Positions 1 to 28,542 of a stretch of 28,542 bases of DNA are shown here, piece by piece. Source of the stretch: a phage; assembly GCA_012646845.1 (NCBI GenBank), contig GCA_012646845.1_4707.3. One strand, given 5' to 3'. The position numbers were made by a program, and so were the translations under genes. The notes under the pieces are model-generated. The model did no database searches. It was not told where the DNA came from and worked only from the letters and a program-made list of their open reading frames with translations. How positions within the stretch are numbered: position 1 is the stretch's first letter; each line of letters starts with the position of its first letter.

Positions 1-38
1 AACTGTCGGTAGTAATCAAGGTATTTAAGTTTTGCCAT
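1..38 (-). CDS. 5' end of a minus-strand gene that continues beyond the left edge of the window (product unknown)
   Basis: ATG at 36-38 on the minus strand (translation begins MAKLKYLDYY...), preceded by GGAG about 8 nt upstream, lying 4 nt downstream of the stop of the beta-prime-like gene. Only about 12 codons are visible. Confidence 0.3.
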   Translation of the reverse strand, partial: MAKLKYLDYYRQ

Positions 39-41
39 GGG

Positions 42-1730
42 TTAGGCTCCACGAGGTCCCGTTAAGTTGCGTAATAGGAACGCAACCGTATCGTAACCAA
101 TATCAATGTTGAATTTATTTTTACCACTTACCCAGAAAGCTCGCTTCTTGTGCGAGTTGGTAATTTCGTCAATGGCTTCCATGGAATAAAGAACGTTAAC
201 CGAGACCGTATCACCATCAAAGTCCCCACCAAGTCCGGCGAGGTATGGGGCAGGAACAATAGTAGTTTCTACGAACGAGGCATTAGGTAACCAGTCGGGG
301 TATTCCCATGCGATAAATCGTTCATCCGTTATTGGTTCCCAGTTACTATCCAGTTCGGTTTTCGGTTTTGCCGCAACGGTTGTACGCGCGTAACAGGTTA
401 ACGGGATAACGGATTGCATACCGGATACCGGATAACGTGTTACCATCGCAGCCAGGTTATTCCAGTACTTATATCCGGCAATATAGATAAGCTCGGTGTA
501 AGTAATGGGGTGAACATCCGCACCAGGCTTATTCAGCATCTCCGGAGGTAATTCACTCATGCCACGGAATAACCGAAACGAATCATTATTTACATAGACG
601 AGACAAAGATATCGTCCATTAACCATGATAGGTTCGTTACGCACGCCCGGATCGCTTAAGGTATTCAATAAGCGTTCTATTCCGTCCCATGTTGTAAAGT
701 CATCGATGGTGTCTGGATCAAGCGTAACACGTTCACGTTCCATCGTTTCGGTATCAATAAGTTCAACTTCTGTAACATCACGGACAAATATTTCCTGCAA
801 AATCCCCGTACGTAACGCATGTTGCGTTACAGGGAGAGCAGCTTTACTCATCTGGTATAACCCTAACTGAACTGCGGTACAGGAAGGCTGGTTAGGCGAC
901 CCTAGTACCTCTGTTGTGGGGTTAATTGCCGAAATAACGTTACGGGTTGAGTTCCAAACACGACGTGAGCCGAACTTCCCTTGGAAGATCCCTTTCTTAC
1001 CTTGGAACATGTCCAACAACAAAGCGTAGATATCGTTAAATGTTCTCTGTAAGCTCCAGCGCTGGCCGTCGTAAACGGGATCAGAATAATCTTTTAATCC
1101 ATCAGGGACGGTGTTGGAAATTGCAAGGAAACGACGATACAACTCCGTGATTTCTTGCTCGCTTTCATACCCGCCTTCTTTTACTTCTATTTCACGTAAA
1201 CCCGCAGGTAAAACCAGTAAGTGACGGGTCATCGCTTTGAACATGTTCTCTTCGACAACTTTAATTCGTAGCTCTCGTTGAGCTGAACCCGTTGAAACGA
1301 ACTTAATATCAGCTACGTGCTGTGCAAAGAACCCGTATCCTGTTTGTCCTGTTAACGCATCAGACGCAACGAAGTCGCGTTGTTCAGGATCCCAACGAGC
1401 GTACGCCTTTCCTGACATGATATCACCATAGAGGTGTTTTAGTCGAATGAGGCGGTCGTAAATGACAGGGTGCAGGATTTCAACCTTGCATTCAATCACC
1501 GCAAATCGACGGTCTCGGTCTTCACTGCCCGCACTACCAAAGATGGTGTAAGAATAGAAACCATCATCGTGGAAATTACCGGTGCTTGGGTCACGAATGC
1601 TCATGCTCGTGATCTTGGGGAGAAAACGTAACTGTTGTTTATCGAGGTGCAAAATGCTAATATTAAACGGCTCTCTGACTTTAGCCATGGAGACACTCCT
1701 CTTTACCACCACCGGCTGCGGCGGTATCAT
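42..1730 (-). CDS. Multisubunit RNA polymerase beta-prime-like subunit, N-terminal fragment (phage-encoded split RNAP)
   Basis: 562-aa ORF. The C-terminal region contains GGDFDGDTVSVNVLYSMEA (encoded around nt 212-226), matching the universal beta-prime active-site motif NADFDGD...V.V....EA. Strong SD (AAGAGGAG) about 7 nt upstream of the ATG at 1730. Confidence 0.7.
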   Translation of the reverse strand: MIPPQPVVVKRSVSMAKVREPFNISILHLDKQQLRFLPKITSMSIRDPSTGNFHDDGFYSYTIFGSAGSEDRDRRFAVIECKVEILHPVIYDRLIRLKHLYGDIMSGKAYARWDPEQRDFVASDALTGQTGYGFFAQHVADIKFVSTGSAQRELRIKVVEENMFKAMTRHLLVLPAGLREIEVKEGGYESEQEITELYRRFLAISNTVPDGLKDYSDPVYDGQRWSLQRTFNDIYALLLDMFQGKKGIFQGKFGSRRVWNSTRNVISAINPTTEVLGSPNQPSCTAVQLGLYQMSKAALPVTQHALRTGILQEIFVRDVTEVELIDTETMERERVTLDPDTIDDFTTWDGIERLLNTLSDPGVRNEPIMVNGRYLCLVYVNNDSFRLFRGMSELPPEMLNKPGADVHPITYTELIYIAGYKYWNNLAAMVTRYPVSGMQSVIPLTCYARTTVAAKPKTELDSNWEPITDERFIAWEYPDWLPNASFVETTIVPAPYLAGLGGDFDGDTVSVNVLYSMEAIDEITNSHKKRAFWVSGKNKFNIDIGYDTVAFLLRNLTGPRGA

Positions 1731-1933
1731 CTGAACACACGAGAGACGTAATGGGTGATGGCGTCACCCATCGCTTCCTTGCTTGAGGCGAGGAAGTTAT
1801 TAGGTTACGTGCCTGCCTGATTTTATCAGGTGGGCGATGTGTGAAGTTACGCTTCAACATTATCATTGCCGAAGGTAAACTTCGTGCATCACGTTCCAAC
1901 GTAACATGGGAACGTATCGAACTGGAGGTATAC

Positions 1934-4900
1934 ATGGTAGATAAAACCCGTGTTGAGGGTGATGATAATTGGGATAACTGGGATGATGACTTCTCCCTGG
2001 ATCTCGATTTTAACGAACCCAAAGACGATCGTAAACCGATAACCCGCTTTGCGGTAGGAGCGGTTAAAGGTGCTGCTGAGGATCTTACTTCCTACGAAAG
2101 AATGAAGGAGATCGCCAGAAACGCATTGCCTAAGGGCTACAGCGACGGTATGGATCTTATCGATTCCGCCGTCGGATCCACGAAGGAACTATACAATGAA
2201 GCCGTTCGTGACGTTCTTCCTAAGGTCCAAAGCTCAAAACGGTTAGCCGCACAACTGACCAAGAAATACCGTGCGAGCATGCCCGATTTCTCGAAGAAAA
2301 TTCTTGAGCAATGGGAGCGAGAAGCCAAGGAAGAAGACGAACGTAAACAAGCTGAAGAAACCCTTCGTCAGCGCATGGCGAACGCGGGGGACGATGAGAT
2401 CGCCCGCAAGGTTGCCGAGGCATTAGGCGAATCAGCAAACCAAAGCGCGGATCAGTTTGCTGAACAGCAAGCGAAAGAAAGTATCCGTGACGATATCGCT
2501 GACAAACGGTACGCTGTAACCAACAAGCAAATGAGTGCGATGCAAGAAGGCGTCGCCAAGATGGTTGGTTTCAACAACGAATTTGCTGCGCGCTATATGC
2601 GTAAAAGCCTGGAACTGAAATATCGTTCCTTAGCGATACAACGCGCAAGTTTCGACCAGCATAAAAAGTTAGCCGAAGTCTATATCGGTTTATTACAAAA
2701 CATCCAGAAGAATACGGCTTTACCTGATGCGGCTAAAGCAAAAATGTCGGAAGAATTCCGTCGTAGTGCATACCAACGTTTCTTTGGTAATGCGTTAGAT
2801 GCGATGGGTTCTTTCGAGAACCGTTTCTTTGCCGATGTTAAGAAGAACCTCGCCACCAACGCATTAGGTGCTTTAAAAGGCGTCGTGTCTGGCGCAAACG
2901 ATGCGTTATACGGTTTAAACGAAGCACGTGACTCGATGTCCATGATGGACGGGATGGGGTCAGAAGGCGATATTAAGGAAATGCAAGGAAAGATGTTGGG
3001 TCAGTTCATTGGCTCAACTGTCGCGCCGTGGATGGCTAATAAAGGCAGGATGGCGTTACGCGATTTAGCAAAACGTCACCCCAATGCTAAATTCGCTAGC
3101 GCATTAAAAGCCGTGGATCAAGGTGGTGAGGCTGCCGCTTACACGACGCGTAATCTCGGTAAACTGCTCCAGGAAGATATTCGTAAGAACGAATTCAATC
3201 TTAGCGATCCATTTTACAAGCAATTGTTACGCGGCGCAGGGCGTTGGGCGTTCAACATGGACAGTGGACGTAACTTCCGTGTGATGAACGACACCGCTGA
3301 AACACTGGCAGAGCAAACATCTTTCGACGGTTTAACTTACCGCAGTATCAATGAAGTTATTCCTGGTTTTCTTGCACGCATTCTGAAAAGCAGTGAAGGT
3401 ATCCGCACAGGAAACAGCGATCCTGACTACGAGGTCTATGACGGCATCAGCGGGCAATTCGTGTCTCAGCGCACGCGCGAGCAAAGCGTCAACGACACGC
3501 TGTTTAACAAACGTTCATTTGGTTATTACGCCAGCCGTTTCAACGAGGTTATCTCGGTCATCGATCCTGATAAGCAATTATCGGAAAAAGCCAGGAAGGC
3601 ACTGGCCAAGCAGTTGGCACGAGATAGCGACGCGAACATCGCATTCGACCCGGCTCGTTTTACGGATGAAAGCAACTTCGATCGTAGCATTGATCGTGAC
3701 GCTATTAAGGAACTTTCCACGTACTTTCGTGACCGTTACGGTATTCGTGATGATGTCAACGATAAGGGCGAACGCCATCAGGTCATTGGAAACCGCGGGC
3801 AATATTACACGGAACGTAACCGAGCCGATCTTCGTTACGGTAATCTGAAATCTTTACAACCGGATATCCAGCGTAACCTTAACCTGCTGAAACGTACTGG
3901 TGATGTCCAATATCTGGAACGGATCGGGATTGTAACGAGAAATAGCGACGGGAGCTACTCGGTTAATCACGATCGATATTTCTCTGAAATTGATCAATAC
4001 ATCGACAGACCAGAGTACGCTGACCGCGGCGATGTCAATACACGATTAACTGCTCAGGAAACAAGAGCACTGGCGCTGGGTTATCGTGACGCAAAACCAT
4101 CAGCTGGTGACGTCCAAAATACGGGTCTGCCGAACATCGATCGTAAGGCTGCTGGAACAGTAACCATTGATGAAAACATCGGCTACGATAAATGGTGGAA
4201 CGACGCAGGTGTTATCACCACATCGCTTGAAGAACAGAATCGAGCGTGGCAAGAGCTTTATCTCGAGGCGTTGTCCGAAGCATCCGAACAACGTGTTGAA
4301 ATGCTTGCGTTGCTGAAAGCCATTTCTGAGAAAGACTGGTCTAATAACGTTTCGCTGGATGGCGAAGACGTACCTGAAGGTGCAGCGCCCATTTCATTTA
4401 TCGATCGCACCAAACAAAAGCTCGGCACACGCAACCTCTTTAAAGGCGGTCGTAATCTCCTCTGGAAAGGAATTAAAAATACCGCACGGTTGGGTGTTAA
4501 AGGTGCACGCTGGGGTGCAGAACGTACACTAGGTAGTTTGGTAAATTCCGGCAGACGTATTATCGATTTCAACCGTTTTGTGTTCGGCGCATTATCCAAG
4601 GTTGATCAGGTTCCGTTTGACATTTACGTTAAAGGGGAATCCCAACCACGCATATTGGCTGCCAAACTTCGTCAGGGGTTATACTTCGACGAAGCGACAG
4701 GAAAAGCCGTAAAACGAATGAAGGATATCAAAGGCCCACTCGTTGATGCGGATGGAAACATCGTAATCAGCAACGAGGATATCGAGAAAGGGTTGGTCAC
4801 TCGCGCTGGTCGCGCCTTTGAGAATTCAGGACTTAAAGCGTGGGCGCATGAGGGTCTTAATGGAATCACGACGGTATTAAGTCTGCCACGGATGTTAAAA

Positions 4901-7900
4901 CGCGGCGCGGTTGAGATCTACAAACAGCTCGACAAAACGCCCGACGTTTACGTCAAGGGAGAATCAACGCCTCGTCTATTATCCATGGTGTTAGCGGCGG
5001 GTGGGTATTTCCGTCGCTCCGACGGACAAACCATCAAAAATCTTGAAGACATCGATGGCGATGTTGTTGATGCACAAGGTAACGTCGTACTTACGCTTGC
5101 CGACATGCAGAAAGGACTTGTCGATAAATACGGTAAAGCGATTCGGCGCTTAAAAGAAAAGCTTATCAACTTCGGTGTAAAAGCTTTTACGTTACCGTTA
5201 ACGCTGTTACGTAAGACAAAGGACATCCTTAAAACCCTTCCAGGTAAAACCGTTAACGGCCTACGACGGATGGGATTAAATTTCCAATCACCTGACGCAT
5301 TACTGGTGGGAACAACATCGAGCATGGTAGATCGTCTCGATGCTATTTACCAGCTTCTTGACCAACGTATGCCGGGTGGCGATAGGGATTATCGCGATTG
5401 GAATGGGGATGGTGTTCGAGAAGGATCGTTGGAAGACCTGAAACGTAAGCGTGAAGCCAAGGAAAACGGTAAGGATGGCACCGGCAAAGATTCCAATAAA
5501 GGAGAAGAAAAGGAGAAGAAACGAGGATTACTCGGAAGCCTTTTCGATATGCTTGGCGATACCGCATTAGGTAAACGACTCATGGCGAGTCCGCTTGGAA
5601 AAATTCTAGGTGGTCTTGGGGCGGTGTTAAGTGGCGGAGCATCGTTAACCGGATTGTTGGGTAAGGGTCTCATTAGTGGAACCGGCGCGCTAGTCAAGGG
5701 AGGACTAAGTGCGGCAGGATGGTTAGGACGTGGTGCGTTAATGGCGGGCGGGGCCGCATTGAACGCTGTTGGCGGGTTATCGGGATTAGGCGCATTCCTT
5801 ATATCACCTGTTGGGCTTGCTATTGCAGGTGGTGCATTGGCTGCTTATGCGGGATGGAAGATCTATCAGCATTTCGCCGAGAAGCCTGACCCGATGCAGA
5901 AGCTCCGTCTTATTGCGTACGGTGCAAAAGGGGACGATAAAGACTTCAATAAGAAGCTGCTTGCGACAGAAACATACCTCACCGACCACGTGGTTATGAC
6001 CGGGGATACCATCGGATTCGATCCGAAAGCCGACTCGGAAAAGATTCTCGAAATCTGGGAATTGTCTCTGGAAGATTCCGACCGAATGAACGAATGGAAA
6101 CGCTGGTATCTGCATCGTTTTATTCCTGTTTTCGCTCGTGCGTACAAACTCTGGAAAGAGCATATGCCGGACGAGAAGAAATACATGGAAATGGATAAAT
6201 ATCCGAACGGTGAGAACAAAGTGAAATGGTCGGAAGCGTTTATCTGGCCTTCCGATAGTCCTGACGGTCCGTATTACGTCGAAGCTAACCCGTTGGGTTC
6301 TTCTGGTGCGACGCGTTATATTGCTGGTCAAGACGTCAAAACCTTGATGCTGAAACAACTCGAAGCCATCAAGAAAGAGTACCAGAATCAGATCAAACAA
6401 TACTCTCATGATGAGGCTATTGCTGATTGGTCACGGATGTCTGACACACAACGTAAATCCGTTGCGCCTAACGCATTACGCGGTCAGAAAGCGTCGTTAC
6501 GTTTTAACGATAAACGTTATAACAGTGCTGGCGCTAAAGGACGACAGAAGCTTGACGCAACCGCGGTTATTGAAAGCGTAGACCGTCGTGGTAGAAAATG
6601 GGTCGCCGGTGGATACATCGATGAACTCACCAGTCTTCGTGTTCGTGCGTACGGTATTAAGGTTCCGTTGTTAAGTCAGATAAAAGTGCTGATGGAACTC
6701 GAAGACGCTGTAGAACCCGGTGTTGTCGCTGAAGGTAAAGGTGTTAAATACGGTGGCGATCTTGTCGCGCTCTACAAGAAATTCGCGACGAAGTTCGGAA
6801 GAGACGTTAACAGCAAGCAGGATCAGGATATCTGGTTTGCTTGGATGAATAACCGTTTCCTGCCCGTCTTTTTAACCTATTACCAGCACGTTAGCGACAT
6901 GGGTGGCCAAGGTCTTCTGTCCGATGTGGTACAGAACCTGAAAGACAGCCAACGCTGGGAGATCGGTGAGGCACTTGTCGCAACGCAATACCGTGATGAG
7001 AAAGGTGCACTCCAGCCTGTATGGTCCTGGAATAGTTGTGGTTTCTCCGGTACTGAAGCTAACACCACCAGCAGTTCAACAAAGAGCCAACTCGATCTGT
7101 TAAAAGAATATGCGGATAAAGAGAAGGTTCGTGAGAAGAACGCGGAAGCATCGCAAGAGGATACCGATAAATTATCGAAGATCCAAGAGCTGATGATGAA
7201 GCAGGCTGGGTACGAGAAGAAAGACGGTGTCTGGCAGAAGAAATCACGCATTACCGGTGGGATGAGTAACTCCGAAGCGAATTACAACCCCAATGGGAAT
7301 AGGGTAGGTGCAAGCAGCTTTACCGCTTCAGCTACTTCCAGTGCGGGATTGGGGTCAACCGGCGATCTTACCGGATTGCCTAACATGGGCTTACAGAAAC
7401 CTGCAACGGGACCAGGTCCCGAAGCTGGACGTCGTGCGCTTGTTAAATCCGCTGTGAAACGCGGTATTACCGATCCAATGGAAATGGCGATGTTCCTTGC
7501 AAACATCGAACATGAATCGGGGAACTACACTCACGTACGTGAGGGGAACTATAAGACACCAGAGCGTCTTAAACAGGTCTTCCCTTACAAATTCCGTGAC
7601 GTGCAGGATGCAGCGCAGACGATTAGCATGGGGCCGGAAGCGGTATTCGAACGCGTGTACGGTAATCGTAAAGACTTAGGGAACACGCAGAAAGGAGACG
7701 GTGCGAAGTATTTAGGACGTGGCTTCATTCAGGTTACCGGTAAAGCTAACTACGCTCGTCTGTCCAAGACCTTGAATAAAGATCTTGTCAGCGATCCATC
7801 ATACCTGGAAACGCCGGAAGGTGCGGCGGAAGGTAGTGTCGCGTGGTGGCTCAACCGAGGCAATGTGTTACGCGATCCTGCGAAACGGGGTGATGTGCGC

Positions 7901-8599
7901 CAAGTTCGTTATCTGGTTAACGGCGGCTATAATGGATTACGTGATGTTGAACAGCGCTCTGCTTATTGGATTCAGGCGGCTAAGAACGGCACCCTGAAGA
8001 AAATGATGGACGAGTTATCAGGGTCAACATCCGACGATCAAGCTGAAGGACCGACCACTGCCGAACAGGTGAAGAACGAAGCAGCACAAGAGGCAAACGG
8101 AACACCTGCTGTAAGCAACGATCCGCAAGCCCCAGCACCTTCTACCACCCCTGAAGCTAAACCGTCGGCGGCTGCCGGTACGGCTCCAGCACCCGGAGAA
8201 GCATCACCAACGCCTGGAAGTTTCGAAACAGCGAAAGCTGCGGTAGGACAACCGACATCAACGCCAGCACTTAGCGATTTGCCGTCAAACCCCGGCGCAA
8301 ATCGAGGGATATCGGTTCCGAATACACCCGCACAGGTCGCGCAGTCTGCGACACAAACATCGGTCGCGAGTGAGAACTTCTACGGTAGCGCAGGTGAAAT
8401 TCTCCGACAGCAGCTGACCACGCAGCAGAACATCGAGAAGAACACCGGTAGAACGAATGAACTTATTTCGGAATTAATCCAAGCCGTTAAGGGTTCTTCT
8501 ATCGGTAAGGGTTCTGCAAGTCCTTCTCAACAACAGGCGATGTCGCTACCTAATCGTCCGCAAGGAATCTCTCCAACACGGACAAGGTACGCACAGTAG
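1934..8599 (+). CDS. Giant virion-associated protein (~2,221 aa) with glycine-rich hydrophobic segment and GH19-like peptidoglycan hydrolase domain
   Basis: Single uninterrupted ORF. The track starts it at GTG 1841; I prefer ATG 1934, preceded by GGAGG (1924-1928) at 5-nt spacing. Motifs FLANIEHESGNY...YLGRGFIQVTGKANY (nt ~7490-7760) resemble GH19 lysozyme/chitinase signatures. Gly/Ala/Leu-rich hydrophobic stretch at nt ~5515-5880. P/A/S/T-rich linker at nt ~8040-8330. Hairpin terminator follows. Confidence 0.8.
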   Translation: MVDKTRVEGDDNWDNWDDDFSLDLDFNEPKDDRKPITRFAVGAVKGAAEDLTSYERMKEIARNALPKGYSDGMDLIDSAVGSTKELYNEAVRDVLPKVQSSKRLAAQLTKKYRASMPDFSKKILEQWEREAKEEDERKQAEETLRQRMANAGDDEIARKVAEALGESANQSADQFAEQQAKESIRDDIADKRYAVTNKQMSAMQEGVAKMVGFNNEFAARYMRKSLELKYRSLAIQRASFDQHKKLAEVYIGLLQNIQKNTALPDAAKAKMSEEFRRSAYQRFFGNALDAMGSFENRFFADVKKNLATNALGALKGVVSGANDALYGLNEARDSMSMMDGMGSEGDIKEMQGKMLGQFIGSTVAPWMANKGRMALRDLAKRHPNAKFASALKAVDQGGEAAAYTTRNLGKLLQEDIRKNEFNLSDPFYKQLLRGAGRWAFNMDSGRNFRVMNDTAETLAEQTSFDGLTYRSINEVIPGFLARILKSSEGIRTGNSDPDYEVYDGISGQFVSQRTREQSVNDTLFNKRSFGYYASRFNEVISVIDPDKQLSEKARKALAKQLARDSDANIAFDPARFTDESNFDRSIDRDAIKELSTYFRDRYGIRDDVNDKGERHQVIGNRGQYYTERNRADLRYGNLKSLQPDIQRNLNLLKRTGDVQYLERIGIVTRNSDGSYSVNHDRYFSEIDQYIDRPEYADRGDVNTRLTAQETRALALGYRDAKPSAGDVQNTGLPNIDRKAAGTVTIDENIGYDKWWNDAGVITTSLEEQNRAWQELYLEALSEASEQRVEMLALLKAISEKDWSNNVSLDGEDVPEGAAPISFIDRTKQKLGTRNLFKGGRNLLWKGIKNTARLGVKGARWGAERTLGSLVNSGRRIIDFNRFVFGALSKVDQVPFDIYVKGESQPRILAAKLRQGLYFDEATGKAVKRMKDIKGPLVDADGNIVISNEDIEKGLVTRAGRAFENSGLKAWAHEGLNGITTVLSLPRMLKRGAVEIYKQLDKTPDVYVKGESTPRLLSMVLAAGGYFRRSDGQTIKNLEDIDGDVVDAQGNVVLTLADMQKGLVDKYGKAIRRLKEKLINFGVKAFTLPLTLLRKTKDILKTLPGKTVNGLRRMGLNFQSPDALLVGTTSSMVDRLDAIYQLLDQRMPGGDRDYRDWNGDGVREGSLEDLKRKREAKENGKDGTGKDSNKGEEKEKKRGLLGSLFDMLGDTALGKRLMASPLGKILGGLGAVLSGGASLTGLLGKGLISGTGALVKGGLSAAGWLGRGALMAGGAALNAVGGLSGLGAFLISPVGLAIAGGALAAYAGWKIYQHFAEKPDPMQKLRLIAYGAKGDDKDFNKKLLATETYLTDHVVMTGDTIGFDPKADSEKILEIWELSLEDSDRMNEWKRWYLHRFIPVFARAYKLWKEHMPDEKKYMEMDKYPNGENKVKWSEAFIWPSDSPDGPYYVEANPLGSSGATRYIAGQDVKTLMLKQLEAIKKEYQNQIKQYSHDEAIADWSRMSDTQRKSVAPNALRGQKASLRFNDKRYNSAGAKGRQKLDATAVIESVDRRGRKWVAGGYIDELTSLRVRAYGIKVPLLSQIKVLMELEDAVEPGVVAEGKGVKYGGDLVALYKKFATKFGRDVNSKQDQDIWFAWMNNRFLPVFLTYYQHVSDMGGQGLLSDVVQNLKDSQRWEIGEALVATQYRDEKGALQPVWSWNSCGFSGTEANTTSSSTKSQLDLLKEYADKEKVREKNAEASQEDTDKLSKIQELMMKQAGYEKKDGVWQKKSRITGGMSNSEANYNPNGNRVGASSFTASATSSAGLGSTGDLTGLPNMGLQKPATGPGPEAGRRALVKSAVKRGITDPMEMAMFLANIEHESGNYTHVREGNYKTPERLKQVFPYKFRDVQDAAQTISMGPEAVFERVYGNRKDLGNTQKGDGAKYLGRGFIQVTGKANYARLSKTLNKDLVSDPSYLETPEGAAEGSVAWWLNRGNVLRDPAKRGDVRQVRYLVNGGYNGLRDVEQRSAYWIQAAKNGTLKKMMDELSGSTSDDQAEGPTTAEQVKNEAAQEANGTPAVSNDPQAPAPSTTPEAKPSAAAGTAPAPGEASPTPGSFETAKAAVGQPTSTPALSDLPSNPGANRGISVPNTPAQVAQSATQTSVASENFYGSAGEILRQQLTTQQNIEKNTGRTNELISELIQAVKGSSIGKGSASPSQQQAMSLPNRPQGISPTRTRYAQ

Positions 8600-8610
8600 T
8601 CATTAGTTAA

Positions 8611-8637
8611 GGGCGGGAGATTCCCGCCCTCTTCTTG
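8611..8637 (+). terminator. Hairpin terminator after the giant gene
   Basis: GGGCGGGAG-att-CCCGCCC stem-loop (8611-8629) followed by TCTTCTT, 12 nt after the TAG stop. Confidence 0.5.
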
Positions 8638-8648
8638 AGGAATGTTAC

Positions 8649-10790
8649 ATGGGTATTCTTGTTCAAAACGCCCTAATCACCAAACAGGCGTTTTTATTAC
8701 CAGGCGATAGCAGCACGCTGAGTGCCGACATGATTAAAGCGAGACATACACCGTATTCCTACGATAACGTCGATGATACCACTTTAGGCGGGAACTGGGT
8801 GCTTAACCCACCACCGCAATATACCAAATTTGCCGACATCAAAGAACGCCGACGTGCGGTTATGCCGGGATCAACGGGCATGGGCCGAGGCTATAGTGAA
8901 AGCATTAACAGCTTTAAAGAAGTCGTTACGTTACGATTCGGTAAACCTCGCTTTACAGGCGCAAGTATCTTCTTTACTGATTTCTACGATGCTGATGTTG
9001 CCGTAACGGTTAAAACCGGTCGCGATCCCGGTATTCTTTATTACGCAGCCAAAGCGTATACCACCGTTCTTTCTTACCTCACACCGCTACCTTACTTGTA
9101 TATGGTTGGACGTATTGGTCGATATTTCCTGGGTAAGCCTACCAGTCAATATTACTATCAAGTACCAACCATGCACGTGTATTGGGCATCTTTCCAGACA
9201 CTGGTAAACCAAACAGCGATAAACATGGGTCTTATCGCCGGTGCTGGTAAAGATAAAGGCTACGTGGAAGAAGGGGGTACCGTACTCCACCAATATTCAA
9301 TCGGTGGCCAGAACGTTGAAGAATTCATCAACTACGCCTCTAAGACGCTACCGGGGATTTATAAGAAAGGTGGTGGGATCGATATCTACCAGATCGCAAC
9401 ACGGCGTCAGCGCATACAGAACGCATGGGTACGTCGTATTCAATCCATGATGGAAAACGATTACTCGTCGTACGAGGAGTTCTGGAACGATCTTGATAAA
9501 CGACTTGATAGCGGAGCGTTTCCATCGGATGTAACCGGCCGTACGCTAACGCAGTATCTCGCCGACACACAGAAGTCTGCTGTTTACAGTGCGACAGCTG
9601 GTGATAATAAACAAACGATGGACGACCTTTTATTCGGAAGGGCCTCGTACACCAATAAAGATGCTGACGCCAACTTCAATGTCTCAGCGGCTACCTCCGA
9701 CGGAGGTACGTCAACACAGAGTCAGGGCACAACAGCCAATGTCGGCAATTCGACGTCAGGGACAACACAGGCTTCAACAGCAGCATCAACAGCTGGAGGC
9801 GCGAACGTACAGAGCAAAGGAATCGGGCAAACGAACGCAGCCGAAGAAGCTACGTTTCTTGATCTGATGGATGCTGAATTGGCCGACGGTGCTCAGTTCA
9901 TCAGTTTTCGAGTCGATTCTGTCACCAGTGTAACCGAAACGTTTTCAAACAGTGCTTCCGAAAGTTCTATCGCACAGACGATGAATAGCCGCGCGCAAGC
10001 GAACATCGAACGTCGTTTCACCCTCTCCGGTGGTAATACGGGTTGGGCTGTACTGGACGAAGCAATCAAAGCCGGTTCCGATCTCGTTAATGGCGCTATT
10101 TCCGGGATGGGTCTGGATGGTATTTTTGGTGCCTTCATGGGTTCCGGCTTCGCAGACATTCCGAAATTCTATTCTGGGTCGTCAGTAAGTCTACCGCGTG
10201 CCGATCTGACGATGGAATTGCGTTCCTGGAGTGGGGACCGCTGGTCGATCTTTACGAACCTCATGGTACCTCTTTTGGCTATCCTTGCAGGTGGTTTACC
10301 TCAGGCTACCGGTAAATCGTCCTACGGGATGCCGTTCATGTGTGAGTGTTATGTTCCCGGTAAAGTCCAGATTAAAATGGGCCTTATCGATAACATCACT
10401 GTGACGCGTCATGTTGGAAACGTACCATCAACACGCGAGCGTTTACCGTTGGGCATCGATGTCAGCTTCAGCGTTTATGACTTGTCGTCTATCGTCGCCA
10501 TGCCGATCACAACGACGGCCGCATCGATCGCAAAATTAGATCCTCGTGGCTTCTTAAGTGATCTTCTTGCTGATGATACTCCGCTCAACAACTATCTTGC
10601 TGTATTATCGGCATTGACACTTACGGAACAAGTTTACATGATTCCTGATTTAAGTCGTCGCATGCATAAAACCATGGCTGATATCGACAGTTTCTGGAGC
10701 AAAGGTAATTTTGCTAGCTGGTTGTCTGACACCATGCCAGGCAGGATAGCATCAGGGCTGTTATGGAAACGTACAGAACGACCGTTCTGA
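8649..10790 (+). CDS. Hypothetical protein (713 aa), possibly structural; contains S/T/G-rich low-complexity linker
   Basis: Long ORF with GAGGAA SD 6 nt upstream of the ATG. Same strand and immediately downstream of the giant protein gene. No recognisable catalytic motif. Confidence 0.75.
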   Translation: MGILVQNALITKQAFLLPGDSSTLSADMIKARHTPYSYDNVDDTTLGGNWVLNPPPQYTKFADIKERRRAVMPGSTGMGRGYSESINSFKEVVTLRFGKPRFTGASIFFTDFYDADVAVTVKTGRDPGILYYAAKAYTTVLSYLTPLPYLYMVGRIGRYFLGKPTSQYYYQVPTMHVYWASFQTLVNQTAINMGLIAGAGKDKGYVEEGGTVLHQYSIGGQNVEEFINYASKTLPGIYKKGGGIDIYQIATRRQRIQNAWVRRIQSMMENDYSSYEEFWNDLDKRLDSGAFPSDVTGRTLTQYLADTQKSAVYSATAGDNKQTMDDLLFGRASYTNKDADANFNVSAATSDGGTSTQSQGTTANVGNSTSGTTQASTAASTAGGANVQSKGIGQTNAAEEATFLDLMDAELADGAQFISFRVDSVTSVTETFSNSASESSIAQTMNSRAQANIERRFTLSGGNTGWAVLDEAIKAGSDLVNGAISGMGLDGIFGAFMGSGFADIPKFYSGSSVSLPRADLTMELRSWSGDRWSIFTNLMVPLLAILAGGLPQATGKSSYGMPFMCECYVPGKVQIKMGLIDNITVTRHVGNVPSTRERLPLGIDVSFSVYDLSSIVAMPITTTAASIAKLDPRGFLSDLLADDTPLNNYLAVLSALTLTEQVYMIPDLSRRMHKTMADIDSFWSKGNFASWLSDTMPGRIASGLLWKRTERPF

Positions 10791-10806
10791 TATTCAATGC
10801 ATAAAC

Positions 10807-10838
10807 CCCTCTCCCAACCCGTAAGGGAAGGGAGAGGG
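10807..10838. terminator. Two-tier hairpin between convergent genes (conserved core, copy 1)
   Basis: CCCTCTCCC-AA-CCC-GTAA-GGG-AA-GGGAGAGGG. Lies between the stop of the 713-aa gene (10790) and the stop of the convergent gene (10845). Confidence 0.55.
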
Positions 10839-10844
10839 AATATG

Positions 10845-11912
10845 TTAACCTAATGTCACTGTCGGTAAATCAGGATAAAGTTTCTTCAAGCCAGCCATTG
10901 TGGTGGTAGTTGTATAATTCTTACCCATCACAGCAAGAGAGGCATATTTCCTACTGCGGGAGAAAAGAGAATAGAACCCACTGGATGTTTCCATCCACAT
11001 TGTGAGGAGTTCTGCATCGTTACCGTGATAGTTCGTTTTACCCCAGCCGGGTTTAAACGCATCAGCAAAATCAATTAAACGCGATGCTTCAGCGTCGTAT
11101 TCTTTAAGGGTAATGTACGATGGGATACGGTAGTTACGAAACAACAACGTAATGAGTTCAGGGACAACACTGCGGGCACGTTCAGCCGTAATGAGTTCGG
11201 TGATAACAGCAGCCGTACGGAAATCGCCGTTGAGACCAACGCTACTTAACGATTCCGCTAAGGTGGTTGCCATCGCTACTTTATCCTCCGCTGACCCAGA
11301 GTCATACAGACTACGCACATCGATGTAGTTGCCTGCTAATGCGGCTTGACGAATCAACGATGTGACAACTGTCCGGTTCGTCTTATAGTCGTTGTAACTA
11401 AATTCGGTTCGCGTTTTCCCTTGATCGTCGAGATACCGATCGACAATCGTTGATAGTTTATAATACTCATCGCCCGACATCAGACTATCGAGAAGCTTAA
11501 CGTTTCCATCTTTATCAATAAGCTTCCCTAACGCGCCATTGGATTGCTGGTTAATGGTACTGTAAATCTGGTCTTTTACTTGCGATAGGATGTTATCGGT
11601 CGACGATATATTCAAGCCTGTAACATCTTTGATCTTATTCATCAATGCGTTTTCATTCAGGGAGATTTTGCCGCCGCTGATATCGATGAAAGAGTTAAGA
11701 TCGCTTATGGAAATCAGGTTTCCGGTTAACGCCGATAATGTACTATTGATACTGTTCGTAATACTGCTACGAAAACTGGTTAACGCATCCGCCGCCGAAA
11801 CAGCGGTACCGCTAACCGCTTTAAGGAGCGTATCACGCCCTGTCGAAAAATCGCTGGTGATGGTTTTGATCTTGGACGTATCTATACTCGGCAGTTTGTC
11901 GTAAAGACTCAT
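10845..11912 (-). CDS. Hypothetical protein (355 aa), Ser/Thr-rich N-terminal half
   Basis: ORF track extends to 11963. I prefer the ATG at 11910-11912 (MSLYDK...), which has an AGGAGG SD about 5 nt upstream and avoids the upstream hairpin. Confidence 0.7.
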   Translation of the reverse strand: MSLYDKLPSIDTSKIKTITSDFSTGRDTLLKAVSGTAVSAADALTSFRSSITNSINSTLSALTGNLISISDLNSFIDISGGKISLNENALMNKIKDVTGLNISSTDNILSQVKDQIYSTINQQSNGALGKLIDKDGNVKLLDSLMSGDEYYKLSTIVDRYLDDQGKTRTEFSYNDYKTNRTVVTSLIRQAALAGNYIDVRSLYDSGSAEDKVAMATTLAESLSSVGLNGDFRTAAVITELITAERARSVVPELITLLFRNYRIPSYITLKEYDAEASRLIDFADAFKPGWGKTNYHGNDAELLTMWMETSSGFYSLFSRSRKYASLAVMGKNYTTTTTMAGLKKLYPDLPTVTLG

Positions 11913-11923
11913 CACGTCCTCCT

Positions 11924-11977
11924 GAAAAAGAAAAAAGAAATACGGCATAAAGCCTACCCACACAATGGTGGGTAGGC
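11924..11977 (-). terminator. Intrinsic terminator/attenuator between two minus-strand genes
   Basis: 10-bp perfect stem GCCTACCCAC / GTGGGTAGGC (11952-11977) with 6-nt loop, followed on the minus strand by a U-rich tract (plus-strand A-run at 11924-11940). Confidence 0.5.
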
Positions 11978-11994
11978 TAAGATCAACATCGATG

Positions 11995-12507
11995 TTAAAC
12001 TTCTTCGTTTTCTGAACCTAATGATTCAGCATCTGGATCGTCAACAGGAATTGTTGCATCAAAATACCGTTTCGTGTGCGTGGTTGTATATCCTACGCTA
12101 TCTGTGATGGAAATCGTAAACGTGACTTCTCTCGCACGGATTAAGCGTAGTTTATTCATGAAGTTACGGAACGGCATCGATCCCCGATTCAACTCCTTAA
12201 TGACGTTTCCTCGAATACTGGAAATATCTTTATTCGTCTTATCGGGATGCCGTTTCTTCACATCACGCATATGTCGGGTAATATACGAATTGAGCTGATT
12301 TGCGCCGATCCCTCTCTCCGTATAAATCTGCAACAGGAACTCCGTAAGGAAATCCTGTCTACCCGTAGGCGTCCAGAAATTGTTACCGTGATTGTAGTTA
12401 GTCGCTCGTCCTCGATTACTTTGAGGATTTTCATCATCGTTTTCGTCACAACGCTTAAGCGGATTAATGCGTGCTCGGAAAGAGACTTCATTATATTTAT
12501 TTGTCAT
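11995..12507 (-). CDS. Hypothetical basic protein (170 aa)
   Basis: ORF track extends to 12552. The internal ATG at 12505-12507 (MTNKYNEV...) overlaps the upstream gene's TGA stop as ATGA, indicating translational coupling. Confidence 0.6.
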   Translation of the reverse strand: MTNKYNEVSFRARINPLKRCDENDDENPQSNRGRATNYNHGNNFWTPTGRQDFLTEFLLQIYTERGIGANQLNSYITRHMRDVKKRHPDKTNKDISSIRGNVIKELNRGSMPFRNFMNKLRLIRAREVTFTISITDSVGYTTTHTKRYFDATIPVDDPDAESLGSENEEV

Positions 12508-15179: not shown

Positions 15180-15854
15180 TTAGCCCTCATCAAGGTTATT
15201 CTGGAGATGCATTGCGGTGAGAATAACACCAACTGCCGAAACCGATTTTGCCTTGCTGTCTTCGGGTAGCTGTTCCAAGCTTACGGTACCTGTTTCTAAC
15301 AGCATGCGGTTCATCGCGTTGAACTTCTTATCATCGCCACCACGAGCCTGCATTAACTCTCGGTTCACGTTTGGCATCGATCGTCCTAACGTTGCTTGCA
15401 TTTCCGGTTGACTCCAAGTGGAACCTTTACTATCACCTGTCGGCTGATTGGTGAGCTGGTCCTTGGTGTTGTTGTTTTTCGGAATCGATATTTTAGCACT
15501 CAGCGTTTCGGCTTGTCGGCGGTTTGGAATCAGGTACAATCTGGTTGGGCGATCACGAAGCACCAATTGTCCTGTTTTCTGATCGGTGAGATAAACGCGT
15601 TGGAAGAAAGGGAAACCGTATTTCTTGCCGACTTCCAGTGCGCGTTTTATCGTCACCTCGTTTTTGTTCATATTGGGTACCCAGATGGGTAGAATCTCTT
15701 TCTTATCCCGACATAAACGCATATACGCATCAAACGTCTCATCATCGATTTCAGCAAAACGTTTTTTGTAAATAGCGTAGGTCGGACTCGATCCCCCCAC
15801 CAAGTCTTTGATATACCCAAGAATGAATTTTTCTGCTGCAGCGCGGTTGGACAT
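15180..15854 (-). CDS. Hypothetical protein (224 aa)
   Basis: ATG at 15852-15854 with AGGAGA SD that overlaps the stop of the upstream SLOG-like gene. Confidence 0.7.
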   Translation of the reverse strand: MSNRAAAEKFILGYIKDLVGGSSPTYAIYKKRFAEIDDETFDAYMRLCRDKKEILPIWVPNMNKNEVTIKRALEVGKKYGFPFFQRVYLTDQKTGQLVLRDRPTRLYLIPNRRQAETLSAKISIPKNNNTKDQLTNQPTGDSKGSTWSQPEMQATLGRSMPNVNRELMQARGGDDKKFNAMNRMLLETGTVSLEQLPEDSKAKSVSAVGVILTAMHLQNNLDEG

Positions 15855-16591: not shown

Positions 16592-18082
16592 TTATTTTTT
16601 GCTTGGACGATTTAATGCAGGTACCGGGTTCTTTGGTTGCTTTGTCTTTTCATCCATCCAGTACGGGAAGTACTCACCGGTACGCATACGCAATAAGTCC
16701 ATTGTGGACAAGAACGGTAGCGGGTTAGGATCATCCAGATATGTCCAGTAACCGCGTGTGTTTAACAACACATCCCAATCGAACCCTTTTGCTTTAAGAT
16801 CGTCGTACAGTTCCTGCGGGGTGCAATACAATTGCGGATTTTCGTAAACCTCTTGACGCCAGAGATTATGCATCTGACATAGCTCCGACGTAATTTCCAG
16901 AGCACGCTGTAAATACTCATCTTCTTCGCAGAGAGAACGAATGGTCGTGCGCTGCAACGCAACATCCGGATAAATATCCAAATACACCGTTGAAGCACCA
17001 TCAGCTGACTTACCACCTGACGCATGCATACCCCAACCACGCATCCAATCTTTATCACGCAGGTAGTGGTATTCCGTTAATGATGGTTTAACCCCTTCGC
17101 TCTGACTAACCACAATCGGGAACGGTAAGCCAGTGGGTCCGTTTTTAGCACGCATGTTGAAGACTTGGATCATCTGTAGATCGGTATCACCAATAAGGTT
17201 ATCACCAGGCCCACGCGGATAAAGAACGCGTTTATCGGCGTTCTGAAGGATCGTCAGTTTATCGATTTTCCAGAGGTTGTTCGTATAAAACGTGAAGCGT
17301 TCCGGGACGTTCTTAAACTTCTCATCGCCCTTAAACCCTTTCAGTTTTCGTACCGGCTGCTGTCCCGGCATACCACCAACGTTTACGCCATCGCCGAGGT
17401 GGGCGGTCATGGTAATGTAGATACCTGCTGACGCTGTGAGTACCGGCATCTGTGATAGAATCTGGCTTTTCGCTGCTGCCGAACGCATCGCTTCAGCATT
17501 CAGTTTTGCACCACCCGCGGTTTCTTTATCAAACAGTGCGTCAACGGCATCGATTGGTAATCCAGAGAAACTGTCGATGAGTACAACGGTTGGTAACCAC
17601 CAGGTATAGTTCTCGCCATGTTTATTAATGAACGGAACGGCTTTGCGTTGGGATTTATCTTTGACCTTGTCGTCACGGAATTTCTTAATCGCATCAAACC
17701 AAATGTTACCACTCATCTGAACAGCATCGGTGATAAACACACGTTCTTCTTCGAAAAGATCGACACCCGCGATATTAGACATGTTCATCGCAAGCGTTAA
17801 GATACGCGTTGTCGTTAACGACATTTCTGTATCGTAAACGCTACTGTTGCTGTTCGCGTAACGATCGATAACACGTAACAAGCGAAACATTATGAACGTG
17901 GTTTTGTTCATGTTGCCGCGAGCGCCTGCGCCCTCAACAAGCATCATACCGCCGTTACAAATGCTTTCACCATGTTTACCGACATAGTACCGACCGCCAG
18001 ATGTGGGAATATCCATTAAGCAGCCAATGTTGAGATTAAAACGCATCTCTTCACCGGGAGAAAGGTACTTATTAAGATTCAT
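16592..18082 (-). CDS. Divergent RecA/UvsX-like protein (496 aa) with non-canonical P-loop; assignment tentative
   Basis: Motif-level resemblance to the RecA core: hhhhDS Walker-B-like VVLIDSFSGLP, followed by ...AEAMRSAAAKSQILSQ... and ITMTAHLGDG (compare RecA VVVDSVAAL...MRKLAGNL...IFINQIR). The expected Walker A region reads EGAGARGNMNKTTF, which is not G-x4-GK[ST]. ATG at 18082 with AAGGAG upstream. Confidence 0.45.
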   Translation of the reverse strand: MNLNKYLSPGEEMRFNLNIGCLMDIPTSGGRYYVGKHGESICNGGMMLVEGAGARGNMNKTTFIMFRLLRVIDRYANSNSSVYDTEMSLTTTRILTLAMNMSNIAGVDLFEEERVFITDAVQMSGNIWFDAIKKFRDDKVKDKSQRKAVPFINKHGENYTWWLPTVVLIDSFSGLPIDAVDALFDKETAGGAKLNAEAMRSAAAKSQILSQMPVLTASAGIYITMTAHLGDGVNVGGMPGQQPVRKLKGFKGDEKFKNVPERFTFYTNNLWKIDKLTILQNADKRVLYPRGPGDNLIGDTDLQMIQVFNMRAKNGPTGLPFPIVVSQSEGVKPSLTEYHYLRDKDWMRGWGMHASGGKSADGASTVYLDIYPDVALQRTTIRSLCEEDEYLQRALEITSELCQMHNLWRQEVYENPQLYCTPQELYDDLKAKGFDWDVLLNTRGYWTYLDDPNPLPFLSTMDLLRMRTGEYFPYWMDEKTKQPKNPVPALNRPSKK

Positions 18083-19509: not shown

Positions 19510-21036
19510 TTACTCCAACACATAACGTGGGTTACTGTATATGTTAGCCCATATACCAACGTCGTCCCCCGACTCAATAATCACGGCGAAACGAAACGCA
19601 ACATCGGACTCGCGATATGTTACCGCGTACGCTTTCGTTTCCGGCGATGCTAAATAGCTCAAGTTCAGACGTTGAGGCAGGTCTAACCCCAAGGACATGG
19701 TACAAGACGTAACACCCTGCTTATCGGGGGTCAGTCTGTAATTCACATCCACTTTCAGGCTTTTCGTAACCTGCGTAATCGCACTATGCACTTTGGTAAC
19801 CGTTTTGCCTTTCTTATCCTTTTCTGTTTCGAAAAGAACGTCGGTGATTTCGGTTACGACCAGACGCGGTGTGGATTCGCGGTTAGCGTCAAGCCATTCA
19901 TCCAGTAACGTCTTTAAGAAGTTCAAGGAATCAATCGCACGCCAAGCAAGGTTAGGCGGATTGCATGCTTCCATTAAAATGGCTGTGTTCGATCCACCTA
20001 GCGGAAGATGCACGCTCTTACCGAGGCCTGTCGGACGCATCGTAAGATCGCACTCACCCTCAAGAATATCGCGATGATGTTGACGATGATGAAGGTTATC
20101 CGTGTATGCAATATACACTGACTCCGTTGTCCCATGCTCTAATACCCGAGATGCATGCGTACGCATAATCTCAATAGCATCATCCGGCTTGCTTAAATAG
20201 ATAACACTATACGCGCTATCACTAATCCTTTTCCCTAACTCAAGACGTCCCTTGTTGTCTTTATCGGTGTTACCACCGAAATAGATGTAGCGGCCATCTT
20301 TCGCACGCTCTTGCTGCTGATTGGTGGTAAAGTAGCAGCGTGAGAACGTAAAGAACGGACTTATTTCCGGTTCGGGACTCCAATACCCCTTAGCCGGAAG
20401 TTCGCGACGTATTTGGGTTCTTACAGCCCAGTCCTGGTTTTGTGATAGATATGTTCCACGCGTTGCCAACATATCCGCACGTTCGTTACCAACATTGCCC
20501 TCATGTCCAGGAACGTAGCGCAGCGAAATATCGATAGCGTCGCGCTTCGCATCCCTTATCGCACTATCGAGTTTCCGCCACCGTTCCGCATTCATTAACG
20601 GTTTATTGTCGGATTTAACCCAGTTGTTCTCTCGCCAGTTAGCAAGATGGTTGGTGGCACCTACAACAACATATTGGCTGTCCGACAACAGCTGGATCCG
20701 TTTTGCCCCCTTTGCTTTTCCAAGTTCAATCGCACGTATTGCAGCATCCAACTCAGCCTGATTGTTCGTTACGTTGAAACCCAAAGCCTCTAACTCATCC
20801 ACGTATTCCTTGGGTTCGACCAGCACGGCGTCTTTAGGAAAGTTGAGTTTAGGGTCAACATAACCGTATTGTGTTGGTTTGGGCTTTCCACTTTTTGAAG
20901 GTTCCAAGGTGCCTTTTATTTCTTTCACCATATCGTAGGTGTAGCCATGCACGCCATAGCCACCGTACCCACTCGATGTTGGACGGGATCCTCCATCACA
21001 GTAGAAAACGGCACCAAGCTCAGTATTTCCTGCCAT
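19510..21036 (-). CDS. RNase HI domain protein fused to a ~310-aa C-terminal domain of unknown function
   Basis: N-terminal ~190 aa carry RNase HI signatures: AVFYCDGGS...GYGGYG (compare FTDGSC..GPGGYG), TNNQAELDAAIRAIE, LLSDSQYVV, NW.ENNW, VPGHEGNVGNERADMLA (compare VKGHAGHPENERCDELA). Start is ambiguous between ATG 21048 and ATG 21036; the latter has GAGG about 6 nt upstream. Confidence 0.8.
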   Translation of the reverse strand: MAGNTELGAVFYCDGGSRPTSSGYGGYGVHGYTYDMVKEIKGTLEPSKSGKPKPTQYGYVDPKLNFPKDAVLVEPKEYVDELEALGFNVTNNQAELDAAIRAIELGKAKGAKRIQLLSDSQYVVVGATNHLANWRENNWVKSDNKPLMNAERWRKLDSAIRDAKRDAIDISLRYVPGHEGNVGNERADMLATRGTYLSQNQDWAVRTQIRRELPAKGYWSPEPEISPFFTFSRCYFTTNQQQERAKDGRYIYFGGNTDKDNKGRLELGKRISDSAYSVIYLSKPDDAIEIMRTHASRVLEHGTTESVYIAYTDNLHHRQHHRDILEGECDLTMRPTGLGKSVHLPLGGSNTAILMEACNPPNLAWRAIDSLNFLKTLLDEWLDANRESTPRLVVTEITDVLFETEKDKKGKTVTKVHSAITQVTKSLKVDVNYRLTPDKQGVTSCTMSLGLDLPQRLNLSYLASPETKAYAVTYRESDVAFRFAVIIESGDDVGIWANIYSNPRYVLE

Positions 21037-21086
21037 TGTAAACCTCATTAATCATTGTCCGTATGATAGCCCAAAGTTGTACGGTA

Positions 21087-27869: not shown

Positions 27870-28489
27870 TTATTCAACAAATCCCGCGTTCAACAAATTG
27901 TCGTAAACACGATTAGCGACATCAACAGGAGAATGTGTGTTACTGGTGTCTATACACAACGTTTTCGCGTCGCCGAGATAGTCCATAAAATCCATGTAAC
28001 GATAACGTCGTTCATTGAATGTTGCTTCATCGATGTTATCAAACATCTGATGTTTAGCGTGTCGAACACGGAACCGCCTTAAATACGTAGGATAGTCAAT
28101 ATCCAGATAAACGTAGTAAGACGGCATGATAATCGACGGTAGGTTCGGCAACAACGCATCAAACAGCTTAACGTTAGCATCATTAACCTGATAAACGTAC
28201 GTCGAAGCAATCGAACGATCGCTAAGCACAGTCTTCCCTTCGTTAAGGGCTGGATGAATCACCTTATTGAAGAGATGATTACGTTGCGACATCATCGCCA
28301 ACAGTTCAGTTTCTGGATCGAATCTGTTCGTCGGCGTCTGATCTTCCAGGATAAGTTTACGAATCGCTTCTCCGTAGAGTGTACCACCGGGTTCACGTAC
28401 AACGCAGACGTTGTTTAAACGACTGTGTAAAGACGAGATAACCGAACTCTTTCCTGAATAATCCAGACCTTCAATAACGATATATTTAT
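27870..28489 (-). CDS. tmk: Thymidylate kinase (dTMP kinase)
   Basis: KYIVIEGLDYSGKSS (P-loop; compare E. coli Tmk KYIVIEGLEGAGKTT), VREPGGT (compare TREPGGT), VLSDRSIASTYVYQ (compare VIGDRHDLSTQAYQ). ATG at 28487-28489 with GGAG SD. Track uses TTG 28511. Confidence 0.85.
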
Positions 28490-28542
28490 TACGAGACATT
28501 CCCCGCTCCAATTAACTATTTCGTTTTTGCCGTCAACGGCTG

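Follow-up and report, generated by a model that had tools for sequence, protein, structure and literature searches.

At its left end this stretch of phage DNA encodes a protein that carries the DFDGD motif of the β′ subunit of RNA polymerase (RNAP) close to its C-terminus, which raises the question of whether the protein is one piece of a split multisubunit enzyme, of which enzyme it would be a piece, and what is encoded by the gene that follows it. The window analyzed here is the whole stretch of 28,542 nucleotides. An earlier note, made from the letters alone, had described a 562-aa β′-like ORF whose motif lies about 50 residues from its end and had read it as part of a split multisubunit RNAP, and that reading holds: the β′-like protein ends soon after DFDGD, and the PHROG, profile, and fold comparisons agree. 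We have little doubt that the product of the gene is an N-terminal fragment of β′, from the β′-like subunit of a virion RNAP (vRNAP), and that the phage is a nucleus-forming jumbo phage of the Goslar type (Chimalliviridae).

Reading frame, start codon, and β′ architecture

The minus-strand ORF is present at 42..1730 and comprises 562 aa. This length is real as a mechanical reading frame, though the protein is most likely 548 aa, with its start at the ATG at 1688, which is Met15 of the 562-aa ORF. That ATG has a strong Shine-Dalgarno sequence in front of it, phiKZ gp180 and 32 of 32 aligned homologs start at the position of Met15, and most gene calls for the identical sequence in public databases are of 548 aa; we therefore place the start of the coding sequence there. 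For the ATG at 1730, neither a ribosome-binding site nor a Shine-Dalgarno sequence was found when the upstream sequence was read. The features of the gene are as follows.

42..1688, minus strand: most likely CDS of the vRNAP β′ N-terminal subunit, 548 aa plus a TAA stop at 44-42
1689..1730, minus strand: in-frame 14-codon extension (MIPPQPVVVKRSVS) that belongs to the mechanical ORF and is probably untranslated
1696..1704, minus strand: Shine-Dalgarno sequence AAAGAGGAG, with a 7-nt spacer to the ATG at 1688, as read from the sequence
210..224, minus strand: coding positions of DFDGD, the catalytic metal-binding motif, numbered 503-507 in the 562-aa ORF and 489-493 in the 548-aa protein

The motif string that had been placed at nt ~170-230 is GGDFDGDTVSVNVLYSMEA, which spans residues 501-519 (nt 230-174) and contains GGDFDGD as residues 501-507 of the 562-aa ORF, with the metal-binding (N)ADFDGD loop present and 55 residues following the motif. 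Within the loop D489, D491, G492, and D493 are invariant across 32 homologs in the alignment. When a profile made from this 32-sequence alignment of database homologs was searched against PDB sequences, its best matches were the β′-N subunit of the AR9 non-virion RNAP (nvRNAP; 7S00/7S01 chain d, 1e-15), plastid and cyanobacterial RpoC1/γ, and many bacterial β′ subunits. Positions 132-223 of the 32-sequence profile align with E. coli β′ residues 211-309, and positions 141-253 align with plastid β′ residues 247-385, including the GKEGRFR..R.VI block, which is paired with the GKKG..R...RNVI block of the phage family; the DFDGD block aligns with both the DYDGD of AR9 β′ and the DFDGD of plastid β′. 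In the profile the clamp helices region, the GKxGRxR...R.VI block, and the DFDGD block follow one another in an order that is colinear with cellular β′. The concern that DFDGD might be matched without flanking β′ elements was checked in this alignment, where such elements flank the motif colinearly.

Structure prediction, which the earlier note had proposed, gives a matching picture. The AlphaFold2 model of the protein has a mean pLDDT of 81, and in Foldseek it matches β′/RpoC1 chains, with AR9 β′-N at 6e-17 and Synechocystis RpoC1 and bacterial and archaeal largest subunits at ~1e-13. There were 728 matches, 591 of them with E ≤ 0.001, and the best 50 of the 728 are all RNAP largest-subunit chains with a probability of 1.0. 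The TM-scores are modest (0.37-0.48), as would be expected for a multi-domain fragment that is modelled alone, and the way in which its domains are arranged is a prediction only. A Pfam search of the protein found no RNAP domain and only a chance Microcin match, and a single-sequence phmmer search against PDB was marginal (5e-4); Pfam models miss so divergent an RNAP family. Because Pfam is empty and the single-sequence search is marginal, the β′ assignment needs profiles or structure, and the alignment and the predicted fold together indicate that the DFDGD match sits within a genuine β′ architecture.

The closest solved structure is that of AR9 nvRNAP β′-N, which is similar to the window protein in ending shortly past D(F/Y)DGD, but which belongs to a non-virion enzyme from a distant uracil-DNA phage, is ~14% identical, and is shorter (426-448 aa). 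In cells, too, β′ can be split after the double-psi β-barrel (DPBB), as it is in cyanobacterial γ and plastid RpoC1; RpoC1 chains rank with the best matches by fold and by profile, and the phage and cyanobacterial/plastid split sites have been noted in a review to coincide (PMC7598289). As aligned with the profile, DFDGD in spinach RpoC1 (677 aa) is ~184 residues from the C-terminus, compared with 55 in the window protein; since the phage break lies nearer to the motif than that of RpoC1, the likeness is at the domain level and not at the residue level.

Assignment to the virion RNAP

Over positions 1-12000 the window is 95.9% identical to the E. coli jumbo phage vB_EcoM_Goslar (Goslarvirus, a nucleus-forming chimallivirus), which is exactly 2044 nt longer over this interval. 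The neighborhood is also phiKZ-like, with the order gp181 / gp180 / (gp179) / gp178 conserved, and it includes the following genes.

1..38, minus strand: next operon gene, a 1448-aa β-like vRNAP subunit (ortholog of Goslar gp207 / phiKZ gp178), cut by the window edge
1841-8599, plus strand: 2252-aa ORF with a GTG start, ortholog of phiKZ gp181, divergent from the RNAP gene
15180..15854, minus strand: second vRNAP subunit gene, 224 aa, ortholog of Goslar gp196 / phiKZ gp149 (PHROG 3233, tblastn)
16592-18082, 19510-21048, and 27870-28511, all minus strand: UvsX-like recombinase, RNase H-like ribonuclease, and thymidylate kinase homolog

The N-terminal 1200 aa of the 2252-aa ORF match PHROG 3201, and an endolysin/GH19-like (lysozyme-like) domain at ~1870-2090 is followed by a low-complexity tail rich in Ala/Pro/Ser/Thr; phiKZ gp181, which is annotated as a tail-associated endolysin, is likewise >2200 aa and divergent to gp180. 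Other ORFs in the window match jumbo-phage families, virion structural proteins among them, and structural and DNA-metabolism genes are interleaved.

The RNAP protein matches PHROG 2986 ('RNA polymerase beta subunit') with E = 2e-179 over residues 17-557, and by tblastn it is matched in 310 jumbo-phage records, including that of Erwinia phage RAY, where the copy is labelled 'putative vRNAP beta' subunit 1'. Its nearest comparator is Goslar gp205 (HOV27_gp205, YP_009820914.1), which is the same gene with colinear flanking genes, but which carries an intron and gp206 between D and F where the window is uninterrupted. Once spliced, Goslar gp205 is 548 aa, as is the window protein, and differs from it by the single substitution I401V, and 76 of the 77 nucleotide differences between the two coding sequences are silent. 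The phiKZ ortholog gp180 (vRNAP β′-N) has the same divergent gp181-like neighbor and the same downstream gp178, though it differs in having the gp179 intron and in its large sequence divergence from the window protein, to which its exon 1 is 37% identical and its 55-residue exon 2 is 42% identical. This second phiKZ exon is an unannotated stretch of 55 codons, which starts FDGDTVS and comes after a gap from gp180.

One alternative is that the gene encodes β′-N of the nvRNAP (phiKZ gp55-like) and not of the virion enzyme, as β′ is split at the same place in both enzymes (PMC7598289) and the solved relatives that were matched are AR9 nvRNAP chains only. We regard this as very unlikely, given that PHROG 2987, a related RNAP family, is matched by the same protein at only 1.5e-5 against the 2e-179 of PHROG 2986, that the gene is orthologous and syntenic with phiKZ gp180, beside gp181 and gp178, and that phiKZ gp180 is annotated in the phiKZ record as a structural head protein. 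The near-identity to Goslar gp205 also speaks against it, this being reported as one of five vRNAP subunits found in virions by LC-MS/MS (preprint 10.64898/2026.04.21.720040). By sequence comparison, then, the protein is orthologous to the gp180/gp205 family and not to the nvRNAP paralog. Assignment as vRNAP β′-N is based on homology, β′ colinearity, fold, synteny, and the near-identity with Goslar gp205; packaging and activity in this phage would be expected from what is reported for Goslar and phiKZ. Earlier publications already cover this kind of protein and how it is split, the ortholog itself, and the intron at the site, and the gene is an ordinary one for a chimallivirus that adds nothing new on split jumbo-phage RNAPs.

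The downstream gene and the partner subunits

The next minus-strand gene starts at nt 38, as the earlier note had observed, with an ATG (38-36) placed 3 nt past the TAA (44-42), and it runs off the left end, so that the window contains only 12 complete codons of it and a piece of the next one (MAKLKYLDYYRQ). Two suggestions had been made for it, the following fragment of β′ or a fragment of β, and it is the second that is borne out. Positions 1-215 of the window are 99.5% identical to Goslar, and in intron-less relatives a 1448-aa gene lies 3 nt downstream of the β′-N gene. Goslar gp207 matches PHROG 3148 with E = 0 and is 32% identical to phiKZ gp178, which has been treated as an RpoB homolog (PMC11620839). 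A phmmer search of gp207 against PDB gave no match, and a two-sequence profile of gp207 and phiKZ gp178 aligns with Thermus β residues 537-712, including EHDDANR, with E = 5e-5. Because of the gp207/gp178 orthology and the Thermus β alignment, we identify the downstream gene as a β-like subunit and not as the next part of β′. It is highly improbable that the two genes together reconstitute β′: they are on the same strand and 3 nt apart, which would suit a recent split, but the downstream gene is a 1448-aa PHROG 3148 member in Goslar and the intron-less relatives, and the gp178 identity, the alignment through the EHDDANR block of β, and the RpoB treatment of gp178 all stand against such a reading.

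In the close relative L004 (Logan SRR7721869 contig) the downstream β-like gene is called as two parts of 1069 aa and 366 aa. Between them, at L004 10856-11222 (plus strand), Rfam finds the core of a group I ribozyme (54 bits), and no ORF is called there. This break in the β gene is near the position of the PhiPA3 gp210 intron (phiKZ gp178 D1072).

The 224-aa protein encoded at 15180..15854 matches PHROG 3233 with E = 1e-65, and in tblastn it is 99.1% identical to Goslar and 38.8% identical to phiKZ at PHIKZ149. Goslar gp196 is among the five vRNAP subunits found in virions (preprint 10.64898/2026.04.21.720040). Against PDB, phmmer gave the 224-aa protein chance-level matches only (T6SS, Rab; E > 0.04). 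Its identification with SPN3US gp244, listed in a review as the 'C-terminal-most β′' piece, was considered and dropped, the match being to phiKZ gp149; from gene order, the counterpart of SPN3US gp244 is more likely Goslar gp210 / phiKZ gp176, outside the window.

[quoted passage not shown] The remaining β′ pieces are encoded elsewhere in the genome (subunit lists in PMC7598289 and preprint 10.64898/2026.04.21.720040), and the fifth subunit of the nvRNAP is likely derived from a σ homolog, according to a review. For the phage studied here, homology and fold show that the 548-aa chain supplies the β′ clamp region and the DPBB, whose DFDGD loop would hold the catalytic Mg2+; the chain ends ~55 residues later. 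This β′-N fragment would assemble with the β-like subunit from the adjacent downstream gene and would also join the 224-aa gp149-like subunit, whose gene is 13 kb away in the window, and two further vRNAP polypeptides would be encoded outside the window. The middle β′ fragment we take to be Goslar gp78, so that the five Goslar subunits would be gp78, gp196, gp205, gp207, and gp210. Sigma-independence and unusual promoters, which the earlier note had invoked, are literature background on such phages. Following the literature on phiKZ and Goslar, the assembled vRNAP may be packaged in the capsid and injected with the DNA, and it may then transcribe early genes with no need for the RNAP of the host; transcription of early genes by injected vRNAP has been described (PMC12908238).

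Group I introns at the DFDGD site

The window gene differs from those of Goslar and phiKZ at a single junction within the catalytic loop.

221..222, minus strand: unoccupied insertion site for a group I intron, where the first D codon of DFDGD (224-222) meets its F codon (221-219)

Junction mapping against the window shows that in Goslar a 2044-nt element (locus L001 6222-8265, minus strand) separates the first D of DFDGD from the F. The element encodes the HNH_3/NUMOD1 endonuclease gp206 and has the ribozyme core of a group I intron (Rfam RF00028, 67.7 bits), and its boundaries obey group I rules, with T as the 3' letter of exon 1 and G as the final letter of the intron. In phiKZ the gp179 intron is at the identical D|FDGD position, with exon 1 ending ...LGAD (GAD|FDGD), exon 2 starting FDGDTVS, and a ribozyme core that scores 92.2 bits against Rfam RF00028; introns in phiKZ gp55 and gp180 are listed in PMC11512511. 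The window is 2044 nt shorter than Goslar exactly at the DFDGD junction, its ORF is uninterrupted, and no Rfam matches were found in the whole 28.5 kb. The uninterrupted product spans ...GLGGDFDGDTVSV..., and the site itself reads CTTGGTGGGGACTTTGATGGTGAT, compared with CTTGGCGGTGATTTCGACGGTGAT at the spliced Goslar junction. Among the best 120 homolog clusters 11 are truncated like Goslar, and 10 of these 11 break directly after ..AD.

At the junction the window has the five codons GGT GGG GAC TTT GAT, where Goslar has GGC GGT GAT|TTC GAC, a difference at 5/5 wobble positions, which has a chance probability of ~5e-5 for a site chosen in advance and ~14% of codons differing, with mismatch density being uneven along the gene. 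The window's synonymous version of the site is common to four other independent intron-less relatives. We consider it less likely that the wobble changes are an escape adaptation of the window allele, as these four relatives share its version, and for the same reason the Goslar state is likelier to be the derived one, tied to intron gain. The Goslar changes may have come about through co-conversion with the intron or through fitting to its guide sequence.

The intron also explains the ends of the deposited proteins, since the CDS entries for Goslar gp205 (502 aa; L001 8224-9732) and phiKZ gp180 (490 aa; L002 22787-24259) stop inside it. Annotated Goslar gp205 is an exon-1 read-through that ends ...GLGGDQGKANKMPVFWQI, without FDGD, and exon 2 is unannotated in both the Goslar and phiKZ records, from which FDGD and the last ~55 residues are absent. 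Because the annotated CDS ends within the intron, these entries lack the true C-terminus, which the uninterrupted allele reveals to be FDGD plus 55 further residues. The RefSeq label for Goslar gp205, 'RNA polymerase beta subunit', is imprecise, and NCBI copies of the identical protein from Salmonella and E. coli assemblies are labelled 'hypothetical protein'; the gene should be named vRNAP β′ N-terminal subunit.

The exact 548-aa protein is found on 68 contigs, many of ~240 kb, from isolate assemblies of Salmonella enterica and E. coli. Sequencing of enterobacterial isolates thus picks up Goslar-like jumbo phages frequently. The undetected Pfam RNAP domain might suggest that DFDGD is matched here by chance, or that the ORF is what remains of a cellular rpoC, truncated or decayed to a pseudogene; this has a negligible likelihood in view of the hundreds of full-length homologs of equal length, the silence of 76/77 nucleotide differences from Goslar, the identity of the protein on contigs that are 4-7% different in DNA, and profile and fold matches that are colinear along the chain, DFDGD region included. 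From the strong purifying selection and the many ~240 kb contigs carrying it, we infer that the vRNAP β′-N allele in the window is functional.

The population is polymorphic for what is inserted at this junction: within the same 90%-identity cluster GGD is followed by no fewer than four distinct read-throughs, namely QGKANK.., LQVSSK.., SI*, and KSLKNK.. (protein clusters P0121-P0149), and some intron alleles have altered exon residues upstream of the junction, which we interpret from the sequences as probable co-conversion. The HNH endonuclease protein cluster has 50 members. It is possible, though we lean slightly against it, that mobile group I introns still compete for the intron-less DFDGD site, as a live target, in Goslar-like phages from E. 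coli and Salmonella. Interference competition has been shown for PhiPA3 gp210 acting against phiKZ gp178 (PMC11620839). If Goslar gp206 cuts the site in the window, then co-infection would lead to intron homing or to interference of the PhiPA3 gp210 type, and such interference would hit the catalytic loop of β′, not β. The window allele is a natural intron-minus substrate for homing and competition tests of the Goslar endonuclease.
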